Below are positions 2,756 through 34,700 of a DNA stretch of 64,000 nt, one piece after another (position 1 is the first letter of the stretch; the number at the start of each line of letters is the position of its first letter). Below the pieces are notes generated by a model. That model did not search any database. It was not told the DNA's origin and worked only from the letters and a program-made list of their open reading frames with translations. The stretch is from a virus. Taxonomy: Duplodnaviria > Caudoviricetes. The stretch lies in the IMG/VR virus record IMGVR_UViG_2974644955_000001, positions 10,705 through 74,704 of that record; one strand, given 5' to 3'. A program made the translations under genes and the position numbers.

Positions 2756-3085
2756 ATGGCCGATACAGTCACATATCCATTTGTCCGAGGTGATGACTTC
2801 AGCATCACAATGACACTCACAGATCCACAGAACAACGATGCCCCAGTTGATATTACCAACTGGACCATTGCTTCTCAGGTTCGTTATCAGCGTCGTCTCA
2901 TTGATGATCTGGTCGTCACCAAAGATGACCCCGTAAATGGTGTCCTGACGCTCTCCAAGATCCGGACTGATACAATGCTCTGGCCAGCACGTACAGTTAA
3001 GTGCGACATTCAGTTTGATCGTCCTGAAGGACGTATCTCCTCTCAGACCTTTCTGATCGAAGTAACAGAGGATCAAACCCAATGA
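2756..3085 (+). CDS. Small beta-sandwich virion protein (BppU-N-like fibre adaptor)
   Basis: Start ATG 2756 after AAGGAAG; GDDFSITMTLTD...VDITNWTIASQVR pattern typical of beta-sandwich proteins preceding phage fibre genes; ATGA coupling to the collagen gene. Confidence 0.6.
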   Translation: MADTVTYPFVRGDDFSITMTLTDPQNNDAPVDITNWTIASQVRYQRRLIDDLVVTKDDPVNGVLTLSKIRTDTMLWPARTVKCDIQFDRPEGRISSQTFLIEVTEDQTQ

Positions 3086-5043
3086 ATGATCTGAACCTCA
3101 CAGCAGTAATGGAACCACGATACGTCCTGACTATTCAGGATCAATCTGTTGTTGTGGGTTCTGACTTCAATCTGACTCTTCAGGAAAACTCTGCACCCCT
3201 GAAGCTCACTCTTGGTCTCCAAGGCCAAAAGGGTATTCAGGGTGATGTAGGCCCACAAGGTCCAGTTGGCCCTGCTGGTCCCGCAGGAACAGACGGTACA
3301 GATGGTGTCAGCTTTGCCTTTGATGGCACAGATACCTTTGCCAATCGTAACCTTTACGACGCTGAAGTTGTCGGCTGGAGATTCTTGGCTTCAGACACTG
3401 GAGAGATCTATGTTCGACTGGATCCTACAGGCTGGTCTGCACCTATCCAACTGAAAGGTGACACTGGTCCCCAGGGACCACAAGGTATTCAGGGTGTCCA
3501 AGGACCAATTGGACCTCAAGGCAACCCTGGTGCTGATGGTCAAGGCTTCACAGTCGATGCTTATGCAGAACTCGTGAACCTTGGAACCTATGACAACGAA
3601 GCTGAAGGCTTCTCTGTTGTCGATCCTGTCACTGGTTTGCTCTACATCCGGTACAGCGTAGCTGGAACGTGGACCAATGGTATTCAATTCGTCGGTCCTG
3701 AAGGTCCAACCGGACCAATTGGACCTGCTGGCCCAACAGGTGCTCCGGGGGCTGCTGGTGCAGACGGTGCTGACTTTGCATTTGATGCAGTCGGAACACT
3801 ACCAGAAAAGAACCTCTATAACGCTCAACCAGAAGGTTTCACCTTCCTGGATGAAGTCAATGGTAACTTCTATGTCCGAAATGATGCCACCATTGGTGCA
3901 TGGACGAATGCTATCCCATTCCAAGGCCCGACAGGACCACAGGGTGCTCAAGGTGACGCAGGTATCAGTGCCTACGATCTGGCTGTCTCTCAGCAAGGTT
4001 TCGTTGGTTCAGTGTCTGACTGGCTCACCACTCTCACTGCATACGGTGTAGCTGTCTCCAATGGTTTCGTGGGAACTCAAGCTGACTGGTTGATCCATAT
4101 CAACGCATACGGCATTGCCGTACAGAATGGCTATCTGGGAACTCAGGCCCAATGGCTTCAGGACATGACTGCCTACGGTATCGCTGTCCTCAATGGATAC
4201 GCTGGAACCGAGCCTGAATGGCTGATTCACATCAATGCCTATGGACGTGCTCTGGACAACGGATTCGTTGGTACAGAACTCGAATGGCTGGATAGTCTCA
4301 CAGCTTATGGTGTGGCCCAGTCAAACGGATATGCTGGAACCAAAGCAGCATGGCTCACAAGTCTGACTGCCTATGGTGTCGCCGTGGACAATGGCTTTGT
4401 GGGTACTGAACCAGAATGGCTCACTCACATCAGTGCATATGGTGTGGCAGTTCAGAACGGATTCGTAGGGACCGAGCTTCAATGGCTCGACTCTCTGGTA
4501 GGCCCAATTGGCCCTCAAGGTATCCAGGGACTCAAGGGCGATACAGGTCAATCTCTGATCCCAGATGCCATTGATTTGTTCGCAAATCGTGCTCTTTATG
4601 ACACGGAACTTGAAGGTTTCGTGTTCATGGCATCAGATACTGGCTTGATTTACTTCAGAGAAACCGTTTTCAATGGAACATGGTCTGTCGGTGTACCCTT
4701 CCGGGGTCCAGACGGACTTCCAGGGGATGTCACAACTCGATCTTTGATCAACACAGCGACCTATACGGTTCTCAATACCGACCTTCAAACTGGTCGTGAG
4801 ATCAAGAAAGTCGATCATGCTGTCGGTTGTGCCATCACAGTTCCTGCTGGACTCACAAACCAAGAGCCATGCACATTCATTCAAACCAATGTAGGACAGA
4901 TCACCTTTGCAGGGGCTGTCGGAGTGACAATTCTCAGTGCTGATTCAGCACTACTCTCCCGTGTTCAAGGGAGTTTTGTCACTCTCTTGCCAGACGGTGA
5001 TACGGCTGATCTGTATTACCTCACAGGGGATATCGTAGCATGA
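3082..5043 (+). CDS. Collagen-like fibre protein (head or tail fibre) with modular repeats
   Basis: Several Gly-X-Y tracts; four ~50-aa globular repeats; eight 22-aa SAY..AV..GF.GT...WL..L repeats. Confidence 0.85.
   Translation: MNDLNLTAVMEPRYVLTIQDQSVVVGSDFNLTLQENSAPLKLTLGLQGQKGIQGDVGPQGPVGPAGPAGTDGTDGVSFAFDGTDTFANRNLYDAEVVGWRFLASDTGEIYVRLDPTGWSAPIQLKGDTGPQGPQGIQGVQGPIGPQGNPGADGQGFTVDAYAELVNLGTYDNEAEGFSVVDPVTGLLYIRYSVAGTWTNGIQFVGPEGPTGPIGPAGPTGAPGAAGADGADFAFDAVGTLPEKNLYNAQPEGFTFLDEVNGNFYVRNDATIGAWTNAIPFQGPTGPQGAQGDAGISAYDLAVSQQGFVGSVSDWLTTLTAYGVAVSNGFVGTQADWLIHINAYGIAVQNGYLGTQAQWLQDMTAYGIAVLNGYAGTEPEWLIHINAYGRALDNGFVGTELEWLDSLTAYGVAQSNGYAGTKAAWLTSLTAYGVAVDNGFVGTEPEWLTHISAYGVAVQNGFVGTELQWLDSLVGPIGPQGIQGLKGDTGQSLIPDAIDLFANRALYDTELEGFVFMASDTGLIYFRETVFNGTWSVGVPFRGPDGLPGDVTTRSLINTATYTVLNTDLQTGREIKKVDHAVGCAITVPAGLTNQEPCTFIQTNVGQITFAGAVGVTILSADSALLSRVQGSFVTLLPDGDTADLYYLTGDIVA
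3967..4497 (+). repeat. Coding tandem repeat, 8 x 66 bp (22 aa; first unit 23 aa)
   Basis: Units such as TAYGVAVSNGFVGTQADWLIHI, NAYGIAVQNGYLGTQAQWLQDM, SAYGVAVQNGFVGTELQWLDSL read directly from the translation. Confidence 0.92.
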
Positions 5044-8454: not shown

Positions 8455-11091
8455 ATGCAAGTAATGGACACACGGGAATTCGAACAGGATCATGTCCTGG
8501 TCGGACAGAAAGGTGAAGTTGGTAAGGCTACCGTAACCAATGATCCGATTCTCATGTCAATGCTTTCCACGGGACTGTACGCAAACCCGTTGAAATCCAT
8601 GGTGCAAGAAGTCACCTTCAATGCCTGGGACGCTCACCGCATGGGCAAGTGCCTGGACAAACCCATTGATATCTACTTCAACGATACAACGGGACTCATC
8701 ATCCGTGACTACGGTCCTGGGATTCCTCCCGGAAAGACTTTCACTGATGTCTATTTCACCTATGGTGGATCGACGAAACGTGACGATGATGACGCCACTG
8801 GTGGCTTTGGTTTGGGATCCAAATCTCCCTTCGCCTATACGGACACGTTCAATGTGACCAGTCACCATGATGGTGCCAAATATATGTACATCATGCACCG
8901 TGTTCACGAAGAGAATGATGGTGGCCCTGGCCATACTCCCATCATCCAAGGTGCTCCAACCCCAGAAAAAGGTCTGATGGTTTCTGTTCCTTTCAAGAAC
9001 AGCCGTGACAAGATCCGGGCATATCAGTACCTTAAAGACATCCTCTATATGTCTGGAATCAAAGCAACAATTCACTTTGATGGTGATGATGACGACGAAA
9101 ACATTCCCCCAGTGGAACTCGTCACATCTGCTTCGCTGAAACCAACGGAATTCATCACTGATGAAGACAATTGTCATGGCACACTCTATGCCGTGTACGG
9201 TGGTGTCAGCTATGAGATCCCTCATCGTGATGAGTATGCCAGCGATTACGACTTTCTTCGGAAGATCGCCAATCAGTTGGGGAATATCTATGTTGGTTTC
9301 GCACCAAACACCCTGACGCCTCTCCCGACTCGTGAAGGTCTGAACATGAGTGAACGCTCCCTGGAGTCGATCACCTCTGCTCTGGAGACAATCCAAGAGC
9401 ACTTCATGAACCTGATCATTCCAGCGACCAAAACTATCATGCTGGAGACCCTGAAGGAAACCAAAGAACTTGGGATCCAGCCTCACTTCGTCCGTCGTAA
9501 GTGGGCAGGTGTTGGTCTTGATCGGAATCTCTCCGATATGGTCGATGGTCAGGCTCCAATTGACGCAGCGATTGAGCGTCGTTCGGACAGTCAGAATGAA
9601 GCAAGCTGGAACAGCATCATGCGTCTGGCTTTCAAGAACACCCGGATGATCACAACTCTCATGAGTCGTAACAAACGGGACACACTGGTGTCTCTGGTTT
9701 GGGCAAAGGTCTATCCTGAGTTCCTTCACTGGCGTCGTTCCTTTGGACCCGTCAATAAGAACGCTCCAGAGGAACTCCTGGTCGCCACACGAGACGTACA
9801 CCGTCAGTGGGGTGAAGACTTCATGAAGCTCTGGAACGATCTCTGTGATGTCTCTGAGCAGGAACTGGAACCAAGAGCAAACAGAGGTCATTACAATTCC
9901 AAGTGGGAACCTCTGACCAATATCCGTGCTGCTGGTGGTTACAATCACATCACACACAGCCGGAAGCTCAACATCATCAAGCGTCTGGACAAAGAGAACA
10001 AGCTGAAGGTTCCTACCAAACCATCACTTGATACCTTCTGGTTCAAACAGAATGGTGGTCGTTTTGACGGTCCAATGTTGCAGAAAACTGTTGTTGTCGC
10101 CAAGACTCTGACAGCCCTGAACAAGACCGATTTCCGGATGCTGATTCAGGATGCAATGGTCCCTGGCCATTCTCGTGAAGCCTTCAACTCCTATCATTCC
10201 CTGAACTGGGAATCGTGGGTTGGACAAGGTTCCACGTATCCTGTGGCTGCCTTCGTCATTCACAAGAAAAAGGGTCAGTATGACGCTGCTGTGGAATGGC
10301 TTCAGGACAATGGCTACAATGTCATCGAAGCAGATGAACCAGAGGAAAGAGCAAAGCCTGCTCCAAAGGTTCAGCAAGATGGTGCAACGGTTGTCGTTGA
10401 AGAGAAACCAAAACCAAAGGGTTATCCCAAGGTTGCGATGCACGAGTACCAGACCTGGGCCAGTGAAAATGAGTTCGTACAAAAACCCTCAACGTATCTG
10501 TATGTCACCCAAACTCAGATCGCTTCCTATGGAGACTATCCCAACAAAGATCTGGTTCGAATGATCCAGGGATATGCTCCAAACATGGTCTTGGTTGGCA
10601 ACAAACGTCAAGCTACCAAGCTCGACAAGGCAGGTGCATTGTCACTGTGGGAACGTCTGGACAAGATCGTAGAAGACATCTTGGCTGACAAAGAGCGTCT
10701 GAAACTGATGTATTTTCATCACTATCTCCACAACTATTCGGAATTCCCGGATGAACTGTTGGAGTTGCCTCAGATGCACAAGCTGATGGGTGTCCCCTAC
10801 ATCCGAACCAAAGATACCAAGAAGTTCTTCCGGGATCTGAAGTTCATTCAGTTTGTAGGCAAAAATGATCGTTATCGTGACGGTCGTGATGTCCCACAAG
10901 ATCTTCGTAAGAAATGTCAGGACGCTTTGGAAGCTGCTAAACAGGAGGACTCTCTTGTTTTGGCTCGCAAGATGAACAAAGCATCTCGTATGTTCGACAA
11001 AACTGCCATGGGTCGTATTCTTTCGGATATGAAACGTGGTGAGAAAAAAGTCTTCATCGAGAAACTGGCTCGATTCTTGCGGACTGTTTGA
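8455..11091 (+). CDS. rIIA: rIIA-like protein
   Basis: N-terminal GHKL/HSP90-like ATPase (QEVTFNAWDA, IRDYGPGI, YGGSTK, GGFGLGSKSPFAYTDTF); adjacent to rIIB as in N4. Confidence 0.9.
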   Translation: MQVMDTREFEQDHVLVGQKGEVGKATVTNDPILMSMLSTGLYANPLKSMVQEVTFNAWDAHRMGKCLDKPIDIYFNDTTGLIIRDYGPGIPPGKTFTDVYFTYGGSTKRDDDDATGGFGLGSKSPFAYTDTFNVTSHHDGAKYMYIMHRVHEENDGGPGHTPIIQGAPTPEKGLMVSVPFKNSRDKIRAYQYLKDILYMSGIKATIHFDGDDDDENIPPVELVTSASLKPTEFITDEDNCHGTLYAVYGGVSYEIPHRDEYASDYDFLRKIANQLGNIYVGFAPNTLTPLPTREGLNMSERSLESITSALETIQEHFMNLIIPATKTIMLETLKETKELGIQPHFVRRKWAGVGLDRNLSDMVDGQAPIDAAIERRSDSQNEASWNSIMRLAFKNTRMITTLMSRNKRDTLVSLVWAKVYPEFLHWRRSFGPVNKNAPEELLVATRDVHRQWGEDFMKLWNDLCDVSEQELEPRANRGHYNSKWEPLTNIRAAGGYNHITHSRKLNIIKRLDKENKLKVPTKPSLDTFWFKQNGGRFDGPMLQKTVVVAKTLTALNKTDFRMLIQDAMVPGHSREAFNSYHSLNWESWVGQGSTYPVAAFVIHKKKGQYDAAVEWLQDNGYNVIEADEPEERAKPAPKVQQDGATVVVEEKPKPKGYPKVAMHEYQTWASENEFVQKPSTYLYVTQTQIASYGDYPNKDLVRMIQGYAPNMVLVGNKRQATKLDKAGALSLWERLDKIVEDILADKERLKLMYFHHYLHNYSEFPDELLELPQMHKLMGVPYIRTKDTKKFFRDLKFIQFVGKNDRYRDGRDVPQDLRKKCQDALEAAKQEDSLVLARKMNKASRMFDKTAMGRILSDMKRGEKKVFIEKLARFLRTV

Positions 11092-26603: not shown

Positions 26604-27419
26604 ATGGGAAACATTTTCGCTAACAAAAAACCCGCTGTCACAACTGAGGTCGAAGACGACTTCATTGGCGGCGGTGGCGTACTGTCCACGGATATCTATC
26701 CAGCGACAATCAAATACGCCTACGTCGGCAAAGCTCAGAACTCCGACGCCCGGAACCTGACTCTTTGTCTGAAGGTCAATGGTCTGGAGATCAATCGCCA
26801 GATCTGGATGACGAACCGGAACGGTGACGTGACCTACACCGACAAGAAAACCAAGGAAGAAAAGAACCTTCCTGGTTACAATCAGGTCAACGGCCTGTGC
26901 ATGTTGCTCGCATCGAAAGAAGTCGGTGACATGGACGTGGAAGAGAAGCAGCTTTCGCTCTACGACTACGAGTCGAAGAAAGAGATCCCACAAGCTGTGG
27001 ATTGCTTCGTCGAACTTCATGGTTTGAATCTGCAAGTCGCCATTCAGGAACAGACTGTGGACAAGACCGAGAAGAACGAAGCCTCTGGTGAGTATGAGCC
27101 AACAGGCGAAACTCGCAATGTCAACGAGTTCATCAAGTTCTTCCCTGAAGACAAACTCGTGACGATCTCCGAAGTGGCTCACTTCGTGAAAAGCCTTGGT
27201 GGTGACTTCGAAGAAGTTCTCCAGGGTGGCGACATCGGCAAAGCCATCTCCAAGATGGAAGAAGACGGTGCGTATGCAACCACATGGCTGGAGAAGAATC
27301 GTGGCAAAGCCTACGACCGCTCCACTGGCAAGAAAGAAGGTAAGTCCTTCGGTGGTGGCAAAGCTGCATCGGGTGGTGGATCCGAGAAGAAAGCCAAAGC
27401 GAGCCTGTTTGACGATTGA
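26604..27419 (+). CDS. ssb: Single-stranded DNA-binding protein (N4 SSB-like)
   Basis: Synteny after the AAA ATPase; DIYPATIKYAY, IWMTNRNG, NLPGYNQV; C-terminal SLFDD. Confidence 0.85.
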   Translation: MGNIFANKKPAVTTEVEDDFIGGGGVLSTDIYPATIKYAYVGKAQNSDARNLTLCLKVNGLEINRQIWMTNRNGDVTYTDKKTKEEKNLPGYNQVNGLCMLLASKEVGDMDVEEKQLSLYDYESKKEIPQAVDCFVELHGLNLQVAIQEQTVDKTEKNEASGEYEPTGETRNVNEFIKFFPEDKLVTISEVAHFVKSLGGDFEEVLQGGDIGKAISKMEEDGAYATTWLEKNRGKAYDRSTGKKEGKSFGGGKAASGGGSEKKAKASLFDD

Positions 27420-28354
27420 TACCGTCAGACTTTGAAGAGATCTTCGGTAGGGTGAGGGATTCGTACAGTGTGCGGATCCCCACCTACGTTAACGTTTCCA
27501 AGAAAACTCAGAAAGCAGTGAACCTTAACGTTTACCGGAATCTCCATCACCATCATCTCAATACACAAAAGAAAAACTTCGCAGATGAGGTGACGCCATT
27601 ACTTCGGGACAAGCCACAGGCAGAACAGATCTGGATCCACTACACAGTATTTGCCCCAAGTAATCGCAGACTCGACACCATGAATGTCGGATCTATCGCT
27701 GATAAGTATTTCAGTGACACGATGGTGGAGGCGGGAAAAATACCAGACGATAACCAAGAACATATTGTGTTATCGACTTTTTCCTTTGGTGGTTTGTCCA
27801 AGATGGACGGCCATGCAATTGCAACAGTCCACATTCTGGACACAAAGAAAGAGAAGGAGCCAGAGAACATGCGTATCTTGCTCGACCAAGACGACATCCA
27901 GAACGCTCTCAATGCCTACGCAAAGAGCCTTCAGCTTCCCAATGCTGAGAATGCAGAAGTTGAACTCTCCATAGAAGACGATGAGATCGTTGCTGAAGTC
28001 ATCCTGGGCCAAGCCCCAGTGAAAAACAAGGGCGGACGACCCCGGAAGACAACCCGGAAAACTGCTCCTAAGAAGGAGGAGGTTGCCGATGATCCTGAAG
28101 AGTCTGCTGATGGCAGTGACGAAGGAAGTGGCACTGACTCTGATTCAGGAAGCAGTGACACAGCAGAGGCAGACGCTGAAGCAGGAGAGAAAACAACTGC
28201 TCCAGCCGAAGGGAAAACCAAAAAGGGAAACCTTTTCGGGGACGAGGAAAGCCCATCCTCGGACTCAGCGGAGAAGACTGAAGATAGTCCCTCCAAAGGG
28301 GCAACCAAAGTTGTGAAGCCTGCGAAGAAGTCGAGCATCTTCGATGTTGACTAA
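27416..28354 (+). CDS. RusA-like Holliday junction resolvase domain fused in frame to an acidic C-terminal protein
   Basis: NLNVYRN, RRLDTMNV, KYFSDTMVEAGKIPDDN RusA-like catalytic Asp pattern; internal RBS+ATG at 27869. Confidence 0.7.
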   Translation: MIPSDFEEIFGRVRDSYSVRIPTYVNVSKKTQKAVNLNVYRNLHHHHLNTQKKNFADEVTPLLRDKPQAEQIWIHYTVFAPSNRRLDTMNVGSIADKYFSDTMVEAGKIPDDNQEHIVLSTFSFGGLSKMDGHAIATVHILDTKKEKEPENMRILLDQDDIQNALNAYAKSLQLPNAENAEVELSIEDDEIVAEVILGQAPVKNKGGRPRKTTRKTAPKKEEVADDPEESADGSDEGSGTDSDSGSSDTAEADAEAGEKTTAPAEGKTKKGNLFGDEESPSSDSAEKTEDSPSKGATKVVKPAKKSSIFDVD

Positions 28355-28544
28355 ACTCAAAGGGTTCATCGCTGGAGTAGCAGGTGTCATGGTTTTATTC
28401 ATGACCCTGCTCATCCTCGCAATCATTGGAGTAGCCATTGCATTCATTGGCTATTTCGCACTGCTTGGTTTCATTGGAATCGTAGCAGCTTTCTTCATCT
28501 ACTTCCTCATTTACGAGGCTGTCAGAGAGTGGAAAGGGAATTGA
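28344..28544 (+). CDS. Small membrane protein (66 aa)
   Basis: Almost entirely hydrophobic, with about two TM segments. Confidence 0.75.
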   Translation: MLTKLKGFIAGVAGVMVLFMTLLILAIIGVAIAFIGYFALLGFIGIVAAFFIYFLIYEAVREWKGN

Positions 28545-28546
28545 TT

Positions 28547-28678
28547 TGCTTTGTGTGGCAGCAAAGGAAATCCTTGGCCACCCGGTTGGTACTTACCAAA
28601 TTCCGGCGTTAAAGAGGTTCGACGATAGAGGAACCAAAACGGCATCACAGAGTAGGTCGAAGGCACTAAGCCAGTGTC
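28547..28678. ncRNA. Candidate multi-helix structured RNA in the convergent intergenic gap
   Basis: 9-bp closing helix enclosing three abutting hairpins, a fifth hairpin and pseudoknot potential (see findings). Confidence 0.55.
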
Positions 28679-28700
28679 ATCCTGTGTGGGGCGTAGAGAA

Positions 28701-28721
28701 GGCAGGGGTAGCTCCCCTGCC
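28701..28721. terminator. GC-rich hairpin at the convergence point, probable terminator
   Basis: GGCAGGGG-TAGCT-CCCCTGCC just beyond the vRNAP stop; no clean U tract on either strand. Confidence 0.55.
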
Positions 28722-28728
28722 TCCCCCA

Positions 28729-31700
28729 TCAATCTAGCATCAGGTTGTACCATGGGTTCAGTTCTGGTGCTGCAAACAGCATTTCCATACCCGTAGCATA
28801 ATCCAACCGTCCCTCGATCATGACCTGGAAGATGTTATCCTGGATCGGAGATCCGATATCAGGAAGCATCATGTTCAGAGCCAGTGACCGAACTGGGTTC
28901 TCCCGGATCTGCTTCATTGCGATCTTCGCAATACGCAGTTTGAAGGACGGGAACCACAGAAGACCCATACGTTCCAGATAGGATCGTGTCCGACCCGGAG
29001 CAGGAGTGAAGTTCACGAACTCTTCGTTCATCCGGGTAATAGCCTGCGACTCGCTAACTCCCTGTTTGATCAGGTGGTCGTAGTAGATAGACTTAGCCAA
29101 GAAGTCACCATACTGAGTTGCCCTGTTGGCAGCCTTGTACATATCGGTGGACTTCGAAACCATCCCAATCTTCACAATACCACCACCCACAGGCAGCTTG
29201 TCAGCGAGTTTCTCCATGTACTCAGCCAGCTTACCAGATGTGATTGCCACATCCAGGTCAGTGATACCCTCAGACAGTTGCTTGTAGGCACCAGCTTCGA
29301 TCATAGGAGCAATCGTCATACGCTTGTTCAGATCTTCGATCACTCGGATCTTGTCTTCAATCACAGTCCGACGCTGTTGGTTGTTACCAGCAAGCAGCAA
29401 CTGAGCCTGAAGCTCTTTGATCTTCACTTCGTTGTTGTTGTACTCTTCGATCTCAGCCAGCTTCGAACGGAAATCCTTCACCATGGTTTTGTGAGGGACA
29501 CCAGCATTCATCAACTGGATAGCGTTCGAACGCATGTTCATGGCAGGAACGATCAGAGAGCGAACCACAATGATATCCTTGGCCGTGGCTACGATCCCCT
29601 GGAAGCCTTCCTCACCAGCACTGAGCCACCGCATAGCACTACGTCCCAGGAGACGCTCTGTGCTCACACGCACGGCTTTCTGGACCTGATCAGGCATACG
29701 AGACTTCCCATTCCACATATCAGTGATGGAAGCCTCACGATAACCTACAGACAGATTGATCATGGCCCGAGGGATCATGACACCATCAGAACCGAAGATG
29801 TTCTCCAGATAAACCTTGGTGGTTTGTGGAACCAAAGACCAAGTATCCTTGTGGATAGGATCCTCAGACTCTTTGAAGTCAACGAACGTGCTCTCAGATC
29901 CACGCTCACGCTGATCCCAGACCTTCTTCAGTTCATCTGCCAGAGTCTTGTTGTATTCAGCAGCAAGGCTTTCTTCCACCTGACGACCAGCCCAAGCACC
30001 CATCATGACTGCAAGGTTCTCTTCACGACCAGAGTGCAGATCCATCACATCCTTGGAGACAGACAGTTCAAAGCCCTGGATGGAACCATCTTCAGCATGG
30101 ACAGGCATGACGTTTTCTTGATCATTTTCGACCGTAGTTGATTCACGAAGCTGATCGTTCACCAGACCGGGGACCAGACCATCCTCATTCGAGATGTATC
30201 CAGCAGTGTTCCCAGTGACGCTGAGACCGTTGCTTGTGTCCACACCACGATAGGTATTGGCCACGTTCTGGAGAGCACCCTGTGTATAGGCACCCTGACG
30301 ACGAACGTTGGAGATGTAATAGGATTTCGGGAACACCGAAGATGCGTCACCTGTATAGGCTCCCAGCTTCTTGTACCCTTTCCGGTTCATCTCACGCTCA
30401 GACTCATCCAGTTCCACAACGATCTGGAGGTTTTTGCCACCTTCATTGGGGATATACCCCTTCCAAGCATTCAGACGTGCTTGGTTCGAAGGCTCTTTGG
30501 CTTCTTCCTGTTCGCTCAACTGTTGCAGATATGTCACAATAGCAACGATTGCATTGGGATCGTTCTGCCAAAGCTGAACCACATCCTCACGAGTGGATGG
30601 ATCCATGACATCAATTGCCTTGATCGAGATCCAACGATCCAGAAGACCTTCCACTTCAGCAGGAATCGAACCTTCCAGACCATTCATAATGGCATAGGCA
30701 TTCCGCATCAGCATCTTGCCAACGATACCGTTGGACATGAAGTTTGCCAGTTGCTCACCCTTCTGGATAGCAGCATCAGCATTCGACTGGTTCAGCTTGG
30801 TCCGGATTTCGTTCTCGATGTTGTTCAGCATTGTCTGACGAGTCGAGCGTTCTTCCATCACCTTCATGGAGTTCTGCATGTTGTTCACATCCAGCACTGA
30901 ATAGACATCAGTCTTGGCCAGAGTGTTGAACATGGACTTCCACTGTTCCTTCGAAGGAGGAGTCTGGAACACACGCTCCAGGATACCAGGAAGATCCTCA
31001 CGGAAAGCCTGACGCATACCAGCGATACCTGCGTTGATCTTATCCAGGAGAGCAGTGATACGCTCATTCTGACGATCTGTACCCACCATCTCAGTGACCA
31101 GTTCCTGGAATGGAATCAAGACCTTCCATCCTTCAAACTGGTTCACGAACCGTTTCGAGGCTTCACCTGTCAGTGCAGCACCCTCACGAGAGAGAAGGTT
31201 TGTACCAGCCACAGTCACTGTACCCATCAACAGCTTCACAGCAGTGTTGCGAGTCGAGGCTTGAACATCAGCGTTCTTCTCACGCATCATGCCAGAGACG
31301 CTGGAGAATGCCCCAGACACATAGTTGTCTGCATTCTCCAGATTGGTCGTGATGTGAGACAGAACCCGATACTCTTCGTTCACGTCGTGATCGACGATAG
31401 TAGCAGCAATCAGATCCAGAACCTCTTTCGGTGGCTTCGTGTCAGCGTCCAGAGAAGCAGTGAGCTTCTGCATGGTGAATGCTGTCATCTTCTGCATGAA
31501 TGCAGGCAGAGTGCCTTGGATCGAGTTGTCCCCAGTCGGTTGAGGGATCTGCTCCATCACAGCTTTCATCCGAGTGGATGTCTGGCTCAAACCAAAGAGA
31601 ACAGCAACAGCGTGTCCAGGTGTTGCATCTTTGTCACTCAGAGTGTTCACCACAGCAGAGTAGATGTTGTTGGCTTCAGTACCTTCACCGAACATCTGAG

Positions 31701-34700
31701 GATCCAGATTGTCCAAGATATGCTGGAAGACACGAGTCAACTGGATCCGAGATTGAGGAGTCAGTTTCATCTCAGACAGCATGATACCGTAGATCGCTTT
31801 GAAGGTAGCCTGATCCCGTGTGTTGTGCAGCAGTCCAGCCTGACGCAGATCGTCGATCACCCGTTGGGCGTTGGCCAGTTCCAGAGAGGTACGCTGCACC
31901 TGCTCATCGGAAGCCTTATCAGCAATCCAGTCACGGAGAGTGTTGATCCAGTAGTTGGTGAAGTTGTGGAATGGATCATCCGTCTGAGGAGGACCACCGT
32001 TACCACCACCATCTCCATTGTTTCCACCACCGGAAACAATAACTCCACCACCCCCGGTTCCACCATCATTGTCTCCAAATAGGACACGAGTGTTGAAGAC
32101 CGTGTGGCTGAACATATCCTGACGAACACCACCCATGATCCGACGCATCAGTTTAACCACTGCATCAGAGATCTTCTTCAGGATGTTGGCCTGCTCATTT
32201 TCCAGGGTACGACGTACACCCTGATTGGACAGAGCATATGCCATGAATTCATTGATCGCAGATGCCTTGTCCTGGGGCTTACCTTTGACAAAGCGACGGT
32301 TCATCACAGACTGAGCACGCAGCACAGCCTTGTTATCGGATTCAATCTCGACGAACTGGCGAGCAAGATCTTCCAGACGCTCCACAGCAGGGTTCTTCTT
32401 CCCTTCGTAGTGCTCCAGCACTTTCCCATATGTGGCAGCATGAACCATCTCATGAAGGATAGTCTCGTTGCTCTTTGTGGTGATGTAGATGATGTCGTTC
32501 TTCGCATCATACGTCCCACGAGCACGCAGAACAGACCCATCATCAGGCATGTTCTCCCACTTCCATTGGTTCAATTGATCCAGAGTTCCGAAGATCACAC
32601 GAGTATCACCCAGCAGTGGCTTGAGGATATCCACTGTCTGCTTTTCATTCTGTGTCCATTTGGTCACTTTCAGAACGGTACGAGCATCAGAAACTGTGAC
32701 TGGGGTTTTTGTCTCAGCCCGGTCATTGATGTTGGATCCAGGATCTTTCATCTCCAGTTCGATACGTGCATTGGTTTCCGTCCGGTTCCATTCAGAACCA
32801 TCTTCAGAGAAACCAATTCCACCACCACCCATCTGATCGACAGACTTCTGCATCTGAGCAATGATCTTCTTCCGAGCCTTGTTCTCTTTGTAACGCTCTT
32901 TCAGTTGCTCATGCAGTTCTTTCCAGTTGGCAGCCACAACGGTTTTCTTCTTGAAGTTGCCCAGCACATCAGCCGCAGCAGCTTCAAAAGTTGCTGGATC
33001 ATCAACACGTTCCAGGAAAGACTCAAAGTTCTGAAGAGCCATGCCCAAGACATCACGCTTCCAGGATTTGTTCACAGCTTCGTTGATCTGAGGGCTGTAA
33101 TCCCGGATCTTCGTAACAGGCACGTCAAGGCCGTCAAAGACCCCTAAAACGTCTTCAGGGGCATTATCTGACCCAAAGAAGAAATTCATCATCATCGCAT
33201 CACCAGAACCAATGACCATGAATGGCAGGGCTTTCACACCGATATCATCAGGCAGAGGCATACGAGCCGGAGTCCGGATTCCTTCGTCCATGTTCGACGA
33301 CACACGCATGTCAGTCAGCTTCTTATCGAAGCCACCAATTGCCAGAGTCTGATCATCTGACCGGAAGATCGGAGTCAGTTGGTACATCTCTTTCTGGATC
33401 CGCTCAAACGTTGCACGAGGCAATTGAGCAGGACTACGGACACCAGCTTCCTTTACAGCGTCAGCGATGGCCTTGTCATACATCCGTTGGACATAAGCGT
33501 TCTGCATGTTGGTGACGAGCACCAGCATATCATTCAGTTGCTCGATACGAGGTCCAAGAACCTCACGAGTTGCATCAGTCAAAGCCTGACCAATGGTAAA
33601 CTGCACAGCAGTTTTGAACTTGTTCACCTGATCAATCGGGAACACGAAGTTCTTGTCTGGATTCTTTGGCAGAAACAGACCCATGTTGGCCATGTCTTCC
33701 CGGATCTCAGGGTAGAAATACTCTTCATAGGATTGGTTCTCACCCATCCCTTGAGCCTTCTCATAGAAGTCCAGCAGCATGTCCCCAGCAACACCAGAAG
33801 CCACACCTTGGACACCAGAACCATAGTTGACCTTGGTCATCGGGTTCTTGGCAGAACTACGGGTCATCCGGTATTCGATAGATCCATCAGGAGTTTCGAC
33901 CCTTTCACTCTCAGAGAATGCCCATGCCAGACGTTTGGCAGCAGCACGTTGCTTCCGTTGCCATGGTTTCAGATCCGTACCAGCGGCAGCCAGAAGGTCA
34001 TCAGTCCGTTGAGCCACTTGCTCATAGAGGTCAGTGGTTTGCTTTGAACCAAAATAATCATTCACTGTCCGACCGATCTTCCCAAGGAAGAGACCGATAC
34101 GGTTGAAGTTTTCCCACTCTTCAGCAGCAATCAAACCATGGCCAAAGTTCACCATCATGTTTGCAGCACCGTTGGTCAAACCATCAAGCTCAAAGCTCAG
34201 AGATGTCTCAAAGGAAGTTTCACCACTTTCCAGAGCCAACTCCATAGATGCCATAGCTTCAATGGCCCCAAGCACAGCAGGGTCATCAGACTGGAGAGCC
34301 TCAATGTAGGTATCCACATCGACCTCACCCCCAGTGAGGATCGCCTTGGTCATGTCCACAGCAGGACGGAACTTCGCTTCAAAGGCTTCTTTCACCTCAG
34401 AAAGAACCTCTGTCTCATTCCGCTTCTCGACTTTGAACAGACCAGAAGCCTGTGCAATCCCCAACCAGAAACCATCCATATCAGCCTTGTCATTCGTATC
34501 GACAGTGCTCCACGTAGGAGATGCAAAGAAACGAAGGAGTTTATTGGCTTGAGGGTTCGGACCCTGATACTGGTGACGACCTACTTTCGTGATCCCGACC
34601 GGGTAGTAGATCAGAGCCTGGATGTTATCACCCAGAGCAGACATGATCTCATTCACCTCAATGATGTTCAGACGGACTGTGGCATTCTTGCCCAGTGCAG

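Follow-up and report, generated by a model that had tools for sequence, protein, structure and literature searches.

A conserved, doubly pseudoknotted element next to the virion RNA polymerase gene of N4-like roseophages: a candidate new family of structured noncoding RNA

When analysing a 64,000-nucleotide (nt) stretch of the Caudoviricetes record IMGVR_UViG_2974644955_000001 (positions 10,705 to 74,704 of a complete virus record of 74,704 bp; hereinafter the window, whose coordinates are used throughout), we found that the gap between the last gene of the replication module and the convergent gene for the virion RNA polymerase (vRNAP) contains an element that is under purifying selection for a specific plus-strand fold. 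The element is known in six independent lineages of N4-like roseophages (Rhodovirinae), in every copy at the same junction, and its fold, which includes two pseudoknots, shows compensatory changes far in excess of those in control alignments. Very probably, the element is a functional, structured RNA of the plus strand. With respect to its role, the reading that we favour, at a probability of roughly 0.4, is that of an accessory, stable, trans-acting structured noncoding RNA of N4-like roseophages, previously undescribed, the function of which we infer.

In blastn searches, the gap matches Dinoroseobacter phage DFL12phi1, with 82.6% identity over 99% of its length, and Dinoroseobacter phage R7L, at 77%, and a part of it is present in the group of Ruegeria phages that comprises DSS3phi2, V12, V14, V17 and V21. 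Pattern scans of IMG/VR and of JGI metagenomes added two uncultured lineages (the L007 and L018 groups) and two single-base variants, and a seventh variant, X1, is a DNA contig from a marine plankton run; additional IMG/VR and metagenome scans yielded near-identical variants only. Between genera, the element shows 76-83% identity, compared to 63-85% for the adjacent coding DNA; it is thus conserved like its coding flanks, a level at which neutral DNA would not stay. In no frame, on either strand, does an open reading frame (ORF) persist across all lineages, and the lengths of the indels are not divisible by three. A 63-amino acid (aa) ORF at 28546-28737, considered as a protein-coding gene, was ruled out, with stops in some lineages in every frame.

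The test of the fold was performed on alignment A2, which consists of eight sequences from the six lineages, with the conserved structure drawn from RNAalifold and inspection. In this structure, 93.1% of the alignment cells are paired, and 21 of the 58 pairs show changes on both sides. Shuffled alignments gave 6.6 +/- 1.8 such compensatory pairs, with none of the 500 reaching 21, and controls in which the partners were slid along the alignment, so that relatedness among the sequences was preserved, gave 2-5. The MAFFT and covariance model alignments leave one pseudoknot stem (S2, in R7L and L007) and one hairpin (P5, in DSS3phi2) shifted, and these helices were checked sequence by sequence; such misaligned rows lower the counts for the helices rather than raise them. 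Every sub-domain folds on its own in each lineage. The supported helices also indicate the strand: they contain 25 G-U or U-G combinations against five A-C or C-A ones, several of the latter resulting from local misalignment, which assigns the fold to the plus strand, that is, to the tail of the unit that encodes the single-strand DNA binding protein (SSB), the RusA-like resolvase and a small ORF. Read on the minus strand, stems S1 and S3 would contain many C-A mismatches. The strand had been left open in the first-pass annotation, in which a model working from the letters alone had proposed a structured RNA in this gap.

The conserved architecture is predicted to be linear, with a simple hairpin first, a bulged one next, then two pseudoknots and, at the end, a bipartite hairpin (Table 1). 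In the window, the first hairpin, H1, begins at the G of the upstream UGA stop codon, and four of the six lineages have its start at that codon; it includes one internal purine-purine mismatch, G28548 opposite G28567, and a loop, GUGGCA, that holds an invariant UGGC. In the X1 variant, the mismatch has gone from its usual position and appears instead two pairs along, which suggests that the mismatch itself is kept. The bulged hairpin, P3, displays zero covariation, with pairing of 100% in its outer CCGG/CCGG stem (four pairs) and 87.5% in its inner stem (five pairs), and is more conserved than pairing alone would need.

In the first pseudoknot (PK1), stem S1 is formed by CGUU (28607-10) and GACG (28621-24), and stem S2, which is the inner part of hairpin P4 in the first-pass annotation, by GGUUC (28616-20) and GAACC (28631-35). 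S1 is 100% paired, as CGUU/GACG in four lineages and as CGAC/GUUG in two (R7L and L007), and the partner AACG of the earlier outer P4 fails to track this change; S2 forms across the lineages as GGUUC/GAACC, GACCU/AGGUC or GAyUCC/GGAUC. The second pseudoknot (PK2) combines stem S3 (CGGC 28640-43 / GUCG 28656-59) with stem S4 (CACAG 28646-50 / CUGUG 28682-86), for which DSS3phi2 has AAGGC/GUCUU and GAGAUGA/UCAUCUC, respectively, both compensatory. The enclosed hairpin, P5 (28662-67 / 28673-78), has the loop AAGCC with a GCCA loop motif, and its fifth pair is C-G, G-C or U-A depending on the lineage. Within the 201-nt element of the L007 lineage, two metagenome contigs, L047 and L049, differ from L007 only in this GCCA, which is changed to UCCA in one of them and to GCUA in the other. 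The terminal hairpin, finally, contains a conserved 5' internal loop (CGUAGAG...) and an apical loop, UAGCU, that is conserved too; both of its stems are 100% paired, with six compensatory pairs, and it ends immediately before the vRNAP stop codon, which begins at 28729.

Table 1. The conserved element, its parts and the surrounding genes, in coordinates of the window
Feature	Position	Strand	Remarks
Whole conserved element	28540..28731	+	~192 nt; from blastn against relatives, alignment A2 and covariance model R1
H1 hairpin	28543..28572	+	11-12 bp; 6 of 11 pairs compensatory; folds in all lineages
Linker CUUGGCCAC	28573..28581	+	invariant UGGCCA palindrome; invariant columns 38-45 of A2
P3, CCGG-UUGGU-loop-ACCAA-AUU bulge-CCGG	28582..28606	+	sequence nearly invariant
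PK1, H-type pseudoknot	28607..28635	+	S1 interleaved with S2
PK2 pseudoknot	28639..28686	+	S3 interleaved with S4, enclosing hairpin P5
Bipartite terminal hairpin	28687..28728	+	outer stem 28687-91 / 28724-28; inner 9-bp stem 28700-08 / 28714-22
N4-type SSB gene	26604..27419	+	phrog_743, E 4.6e-73
RusA-like Holliday junction resolvase gene	27416..28354	+	phrog_14238, E 1.5e-149
Small upstream ORF, 66 aa	28344..28544	+	last gene of plus-strand replication module; ORF list, phrog_34080
vRNAP gene, 3760 aa	28729..40011	-	convergent; stop codon abuts element; phrog_2206, E 2.4e-230 (C-terminal 600 aa)

Folding of single sequences is much less informative. The minimum free energy (MFE) of 28545-28728 on the plus strand is -68.9 kcal/mol (z-score -2.43, equalled by 2 of 200 shuffles), the minus strand is comparable (z-score -2.70), and the relatives have z-scores of -1.3 to -2.5; with values this modest and alike on the two strands, thermodynamics alone goes only modestly beyond chance and picks no strand. 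All hairpins that the first-pass annotation had drawn are present in the window where it placed them, and the MFE structure reproduces its multibranch of three hairpins closed by a long stem P1, followed by P5 and a terminal GC hairpin. Comparison of the eight homologous sequences divides these helices into two sets. P3, inner P4, P5 and the terminal GC hairpin (28700-28722) are conserved and/or covarying, whereas P1 (28547-55 / 28646-54), inner P2 (AAGG/CCTT), outer P4 (CGTT/AACG) and the pseudoknot TCGAC/GTCGA are not maintained; jointly, the latter four have 68.8% of their cells paired, against 68.2% in shuffles, and two compensatory pairs, against 2.2. Covariation in the relatives thus supports a conserved fold other than the four-way junction closed by P1 with a P4-loop pseudoknot, which is particular to the sequence of the window phage and displays no covariation. 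The TGGC/GCCA stem of P2 is invariant in the alignment, so that no covariation signal is possible; a pairing of the H1-loop UGGC with this adjacent GCCA was rejected as sterically unlikely, requiring a 4-nt linker to span a 12-bp stem, with both sides invariant. Unique to this phage is a potential pairing of the 5' strand of H1 with the conserved S4/S3 region over 13 bp, four of them G-U (28547-28559 with 28646-28658), which accounts for both the P1 stem and the predicted MFE structure; this pairing could be an alternative conformation specific to the lineage, or it could be coincidental.

Searches for known RNAs gave no match. With Rfam release 15 at E-values up to 10, the window region yielded only microRNA, small nucleolar RNA and long noncoding RNA noise, at 11-17 bits against thresholds of 41-186; loci L001-L003 yielded the same noise only (four members in total), and across ten loci nothing reached a gathering score. 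ARAGORN detected no tRNA or transfer-messenger RNA (tmRNA) in or near 28540-28731, and none in loci L003, L038 and L040. A scan of 28200-29000 for intrinsic terminators found no site in the gap on either strand: the tails of the terminal hairpin, CCCCCAUCAAUC on the plus strand and UUCUCUACGCC on the minus strand, contain no U-tract, and canonical plus-strand terminators, with a hairpin and a U-run, exist elsewhere in this phage, for example, at 2656 and 8208. Given the missing U-tract and the bipartite shape with conserved loops, we treat the terminal hairpin as a structural, protective or processing domain and not as an established terminator. The literature searched on N4-like roseophages describes no promoters, terminators or noncoding RNAs at this place, and wider text searches were likewise empty. 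The broader proposal of the first-pass annotation, an undescribed structured RNA that is far more than a terminator, is supported by the covariation, the flank-level conservation, the lack of an Rfam, tRNA or tmRNA match and the lack of an ORF, and we regard the element as a candidate new RNA family of narrow distribution.

The position of the element is defined precisely. Its 5' end is ATTGA at 28540, which holds the TGA stop of the small upstream ORF, and its 3' end is the vRNAP stop codon, TCA, at 28731, so that it occupies the space between two convergent stop codons, one of the last gene of the replication module, on the plus strand, and one of the vRNAP gene, on the minus strand, and slightly exceeds the limits given previously. 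The ORF list and the PHROG matches (Table 1) agree with the earlier recognition of this gap as the place where replication and virion modules converge in an N4-like phage. In the 74.7-kb genome, the element is single-copy, and neither second copies nor hairpin motifs in common with it were found there.

Covariance model R1, which recovers eight members at 172-229 bits, finds none in R2C, DS-1410Ws-06, RD-1410Ws-07, EE36phi1 and AX or in most of the IMG/VR relatives, and in R2C, DS-1410Ws-06, RD-1410Ws-07 and AX the two stop codons overlap. DFL12phi1, in which the element is present, and R2C, from which it is cleanly absent, belong to one species, and their 1-kb flanks are 99.1% and 99.2% identical. 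The boundaries read GATCC/CTAATCGAATTG...CCCCCTG/TTAATCACTCAG in DFL12phi1 and GATCC/TTAGTCACTCAG in R2C (slashes mark the junctions), and a 5-nt direct repeat, TAATC, flanks the DFL12phi1 copy. Because DFL12phi1 has the element and R2C does without it in nearly identical surroundings, the element is dispensable for lytic growth on D. shibae DFL12. The two genomes differ in length by 222 bp, and the element, with ~190 of these, makes up the bulk of the difference, which leaves no room for a partner gene specific to the carriers. The same clean difference distinguishes DSS3phi2, with the element, from EE36phi1, without it, in another genus; here ATCA/ATTA flank the DSS3phi2 copy, and no repeats of either kind flank the copies in L007, L018 and the window. 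These differences arose either by recombination, which would have brought the element in, or by a microhomology deletion that removed it. No copies were detected in hosts: a search of 151 Rhodobacteraceae genomes with the covariance model was empty, and a pattern scan of 185,579 species genomes returned chance matches only, which the model rejected. A terminal inverted repeat, ATTGA/TCAAT, is present in this window only and was dropped from consideration. Upstream of the insertion point, DSS3phi2 and EE36phi1 have in common ~220 nt of unannotated sequence, 96% identical (L003 953-1170 and L038 1270-1485), a part of which resembles the region annotated as gp53 in phage V13.

Other members of this phage family have other RNAs, or candidates for such, in the same slot. 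On the minus strand of locus L061 (2910-2985), ARAGORN predicts a 76-nt gene resembling tRNA-Ser(GGA), which takes the slot of the element, is oriented like it and lies at a distance of three bases from the stop codon of vRNAP; this gene scores below the Rfam gathering threshold for tRNA and may be a degenerate tRNA or a tRNA-like RNA. V13 (L040 1373-1534; also L063) has a different slot element of ~160 nt with a weak match to R1 (25 bits), the resemblance being confined to a hairpin similar to H1 and to the bipartite terminal hairpin, which is homologous (UUGGG...UGGGUGGGG-loop-CCCCACCC...CCCAA); the V13 element could be distantly related to ours or could have just the end module in common with it. 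A third conserved non-coding stretch, of ~250 nt, which ends in the hairpin GGGGAGGGGG...CCUCUCCCC, is found on the minus strands of loci L062 (~2910-3200) and L070 (~2931-3230) and may represent another RNA family. In N4 itself (L118 852-1531; NC_008720 ~32451-33130), four plus-strand tRNA genes, for Asn, Ser, Thr and Pro (50-77 bits with Rfam), lie in the 1.5 kb between gp47 and gp48, downstream of gp45-gp47, where the RefSeq record has no annotated feature. In this phage family, then, small RNA genes recur at the 3' end of the middle (replication) unit, which supports, by position only, the view that the element is produced and maintained as RNA. In several Rhodovirinae, the slot RNAs are preceded by a conserved motif, the hairpin GAGAGA-UGUG-UCUCUU followed by CGCCCGGTCCAT, which occurs in L040 (~1215-1250, inside V13 gp53), L061, L062 and L070, is absent from the window genome and could be a promoter or a processing signal.

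According to the reading that we favour, the element would be transcribed as the tail of the SSB/RusA/small-ORF (middle, replication) transcription unit. Its compact pseudoknots and the terminal hairpin devoid of a U-tract would then protect it from exonucleases, leaving a stable RNA domain, and this domain would act in trans on an RNA or protein that it binds with its invariant parts, namely, the linker with UGGCCA, P3 and the loops with UGGC and GCCA. The benefit would be conditional, for example, in host takeover or counter-defence, so that the element could be considered an 'RNA moron'. Small stable RNAs that are co-transcribed at the ends of phage early or middle units have a precedent in RNAs C and D of T4. 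Like the N4 tRNA cluster after gp47, the element is located downstream of the SSB module, in the same orientation and with no evident promoter of its own; unlike tRNA genes, it is pseudoknotted, has no cloverleaf, is twice the size of a tRNA and matches no tRNA in ARAGORN or Rfam searches. With respect to stability, exonuclease-resistant or 3'-untranslated region (UTR) pseudoknot elements are known in the exonuclease-resistant RNAs (xrRNAs) of flaviviruses and the 3' pseudoknot domains of plant viruses, and the element similarly lies in a 3' UTR and consists of stacked pseudoknots followed by a terminal hairpin. The differences are that the ring-like three-way-junction topology of those RNAs is not shown in the element, that the nucleases at issue are those of a bacterial host and that there is no homology.

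Several observations weigh against this reading. The lineages are few, six independent ones and one contig variant; the covariation of S1 represents one event between two haplotypes, and that of S3 and S4 comes entirely from the DSS3phi2 lineage. The L047 and L049 variants alter the GCCA loop without compensation. When only nested pairs are allowed, the MFE of the window sequence favours the P1-closed fold, at -76.8 kcal/mol, over the conserved helices, at -53.7 kcal/mol, a comparison in which the pseudoknot stems are uncounted. A scan detected no sigma-70-like promoter in or before the element, and the two most conserved stretches have no antisense targets within the window. The contigs of the sole RNA run cover 28100-28368, outside the element, and show neither ends nor strand. 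The trans role, the binding partner and the benefit are, in addition, what we infer outright.

Among the alternatives, the one that fares best, although we deem it somewhat unlikely, is that the element is purely a cis-acting 3'-end module of the replication operon and, via its antisense, of the vRNAP mRNA, without any function as a free RNA. Under this scenario, a processing or stability hairpin, subject to RNase III-type processing or serving as an exonuclease block, would double as an insulator of the convergent middle and late units against antisense read-through. The placement of the element exactly between convergent stop codons is what would be expected of such a module, and so are the GC-rich bipartite hairpin that abuts the vRNAP stop, its homologous counterpart in the otherwise different V13 slot element, the start of H1 at the upstream stop codon in most lineages and the pseudoknots upstream of the 3' hairpin, which fit an exonuclease block. 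An intrinsic or bidirectional terminator between convergent genes would have the same GC-rich hairpin in the same place, but the element lacks a U-tract on both strands in a phage that has canonical terminators elsewhere, the hairpin consists of two stems with a conserved internal loop, and upstream of it there is a covarying fold of ~150 nt. Moreover, the sister phages in which both stop codons overlap, without any hairpin, are viable, and a simple end module leaves unexplained the 150 nt of pseudoknotted fold and the near-invariant stretch of 35 nt.

It is also conceivable, if unlikely, that the element represents a new class of phage RNA with a complex fold, itself active and exchanged among N4-like roseophages as a gene-sized 'RNA moron', be it a ribozyme that processes itself out of the operon transcript, a scaffold for a phage or host protein that multimerises via UGGC and GCCA or a decoy against a host defence. 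For multimerisation, a comparison can be made with the packaging RNA (pRNA) of phi29-type phages, an essential, phage-encoded structured RNA whose loops build a ring. The element falls in the same ~120-190 nt size class, and its two 4-nt loops, UGGC in H1 and GCCA in P5, are mutually complementary; this complementarity is invariant but broken in L047 and L049, one of which still allows a G-U pair. Unlike pRNA, the element is dispensable and occupies another genomic position in another phage family, which packages with a terminase, and there is no sequence or Rfam match between the two.

A catalytic or ligand-sensing RNA, that is, a self-releasing ribozyme or an aptamer that controls read-through into vRNAP antisense, appears improbable. 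The fold, which is dense, has nearly all of its bases paired and includes two pseudoknots as well as joining nucleotides that do not vary, would suit such an RNA, as would the direct abutment of S4 on the terminal hairpin, and the strand order of PK2 (S3a, S4a, S3b, hairpin, S4b) matches that of hepatitis delta virus (HDV)-like ribozymes (P1, P2, P1', P4, P2'). An HDV-like ribozyme was nevertheless rejected, PK2 having no P3, L3 or P1.1 and offering only 5 nt (AGUAG), between S4a and S3b, where these must fit. A hammerhead ribozyme was rejected as well: the CUGANGA-like box in the P4 loop is unconserved, since that block reads CUGACGA in DFL12phi1 and L018 alone, whereas the window has UCGACGA, DSS3phi2 has CCGACGA and R7L/L007 have CUGUUGA/CUGUUGU, and Rfam gives no hammerhead match. 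No ribozyme or riboswitch family at all was matched, even at E-values up to 10, no conserved alternative pairing competes with the terminal hairpin, and the site is a 3' UTR, not a 5' leader.

Equally improbable, in our view, is a function at the level of DNA, as a non-autonomous mobile element (a miniature inverted-repeat transposable element (MITE) or a palindrome-associated transposable element (PATE) of the IS200/605 type, the latter folding as single-stranded DNA), a protein-binding site or a replication site. The element resembles a MITE or PATE in being small and non-coding, with hairpins near both ends, in its clean presence or absence in two phage pairs and in the TAATC repeat of DFL12phi1; the invariance of P3 beyond the need for pairing would fit as well, and G-T pairs are tolerated in single-stranded DNA. 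Against a mobile element, there is one copy per genome at one locus, none in the host genomes scanned, and the terminal inverted and direct repeats appear inconsistent across the lineages, as do target duplications; a short repeat fits microhomology deletion equally well, and in duplex or cruciform DNA, pseudoknots that covary would be difficult to account for. That the element has no function of its own, being intergenic filler structured by chance or common ancestry, is hardly tenable: the modest single-sequence z-scores, the few lineages and the capacity of relatedness to inflate shuffle-based covariation tests speak for it, but the slid-partner controls, in which relatedness is kept, fall far below the observed count, the non-coding DNA is conserved across genera like the neighbouring genes, and it is rare for 190 nt of neutral DNA to persist in a phage genome.

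Few structured RNAs combine two covarying pseudoknots with joining segments that hardly vary, and those that have been studied have often proved to be ribozymes, riboswitches or cores of ribonucleoproteins. The element described here has no described relative and belongs to an ecologically abundant group of phages, the N4-like roseophages. DFL12phi1 and R2C, which grow on the same laboratory host and are ~99% identical in the flanking 1 kb, constitute a natural knockout pair, so that the expression and function of the element are directly testable. More generally, phages of this subfamily repeatedly carry small RNA genes, of different kinds, at the module boundary next to the vRNAP gene.

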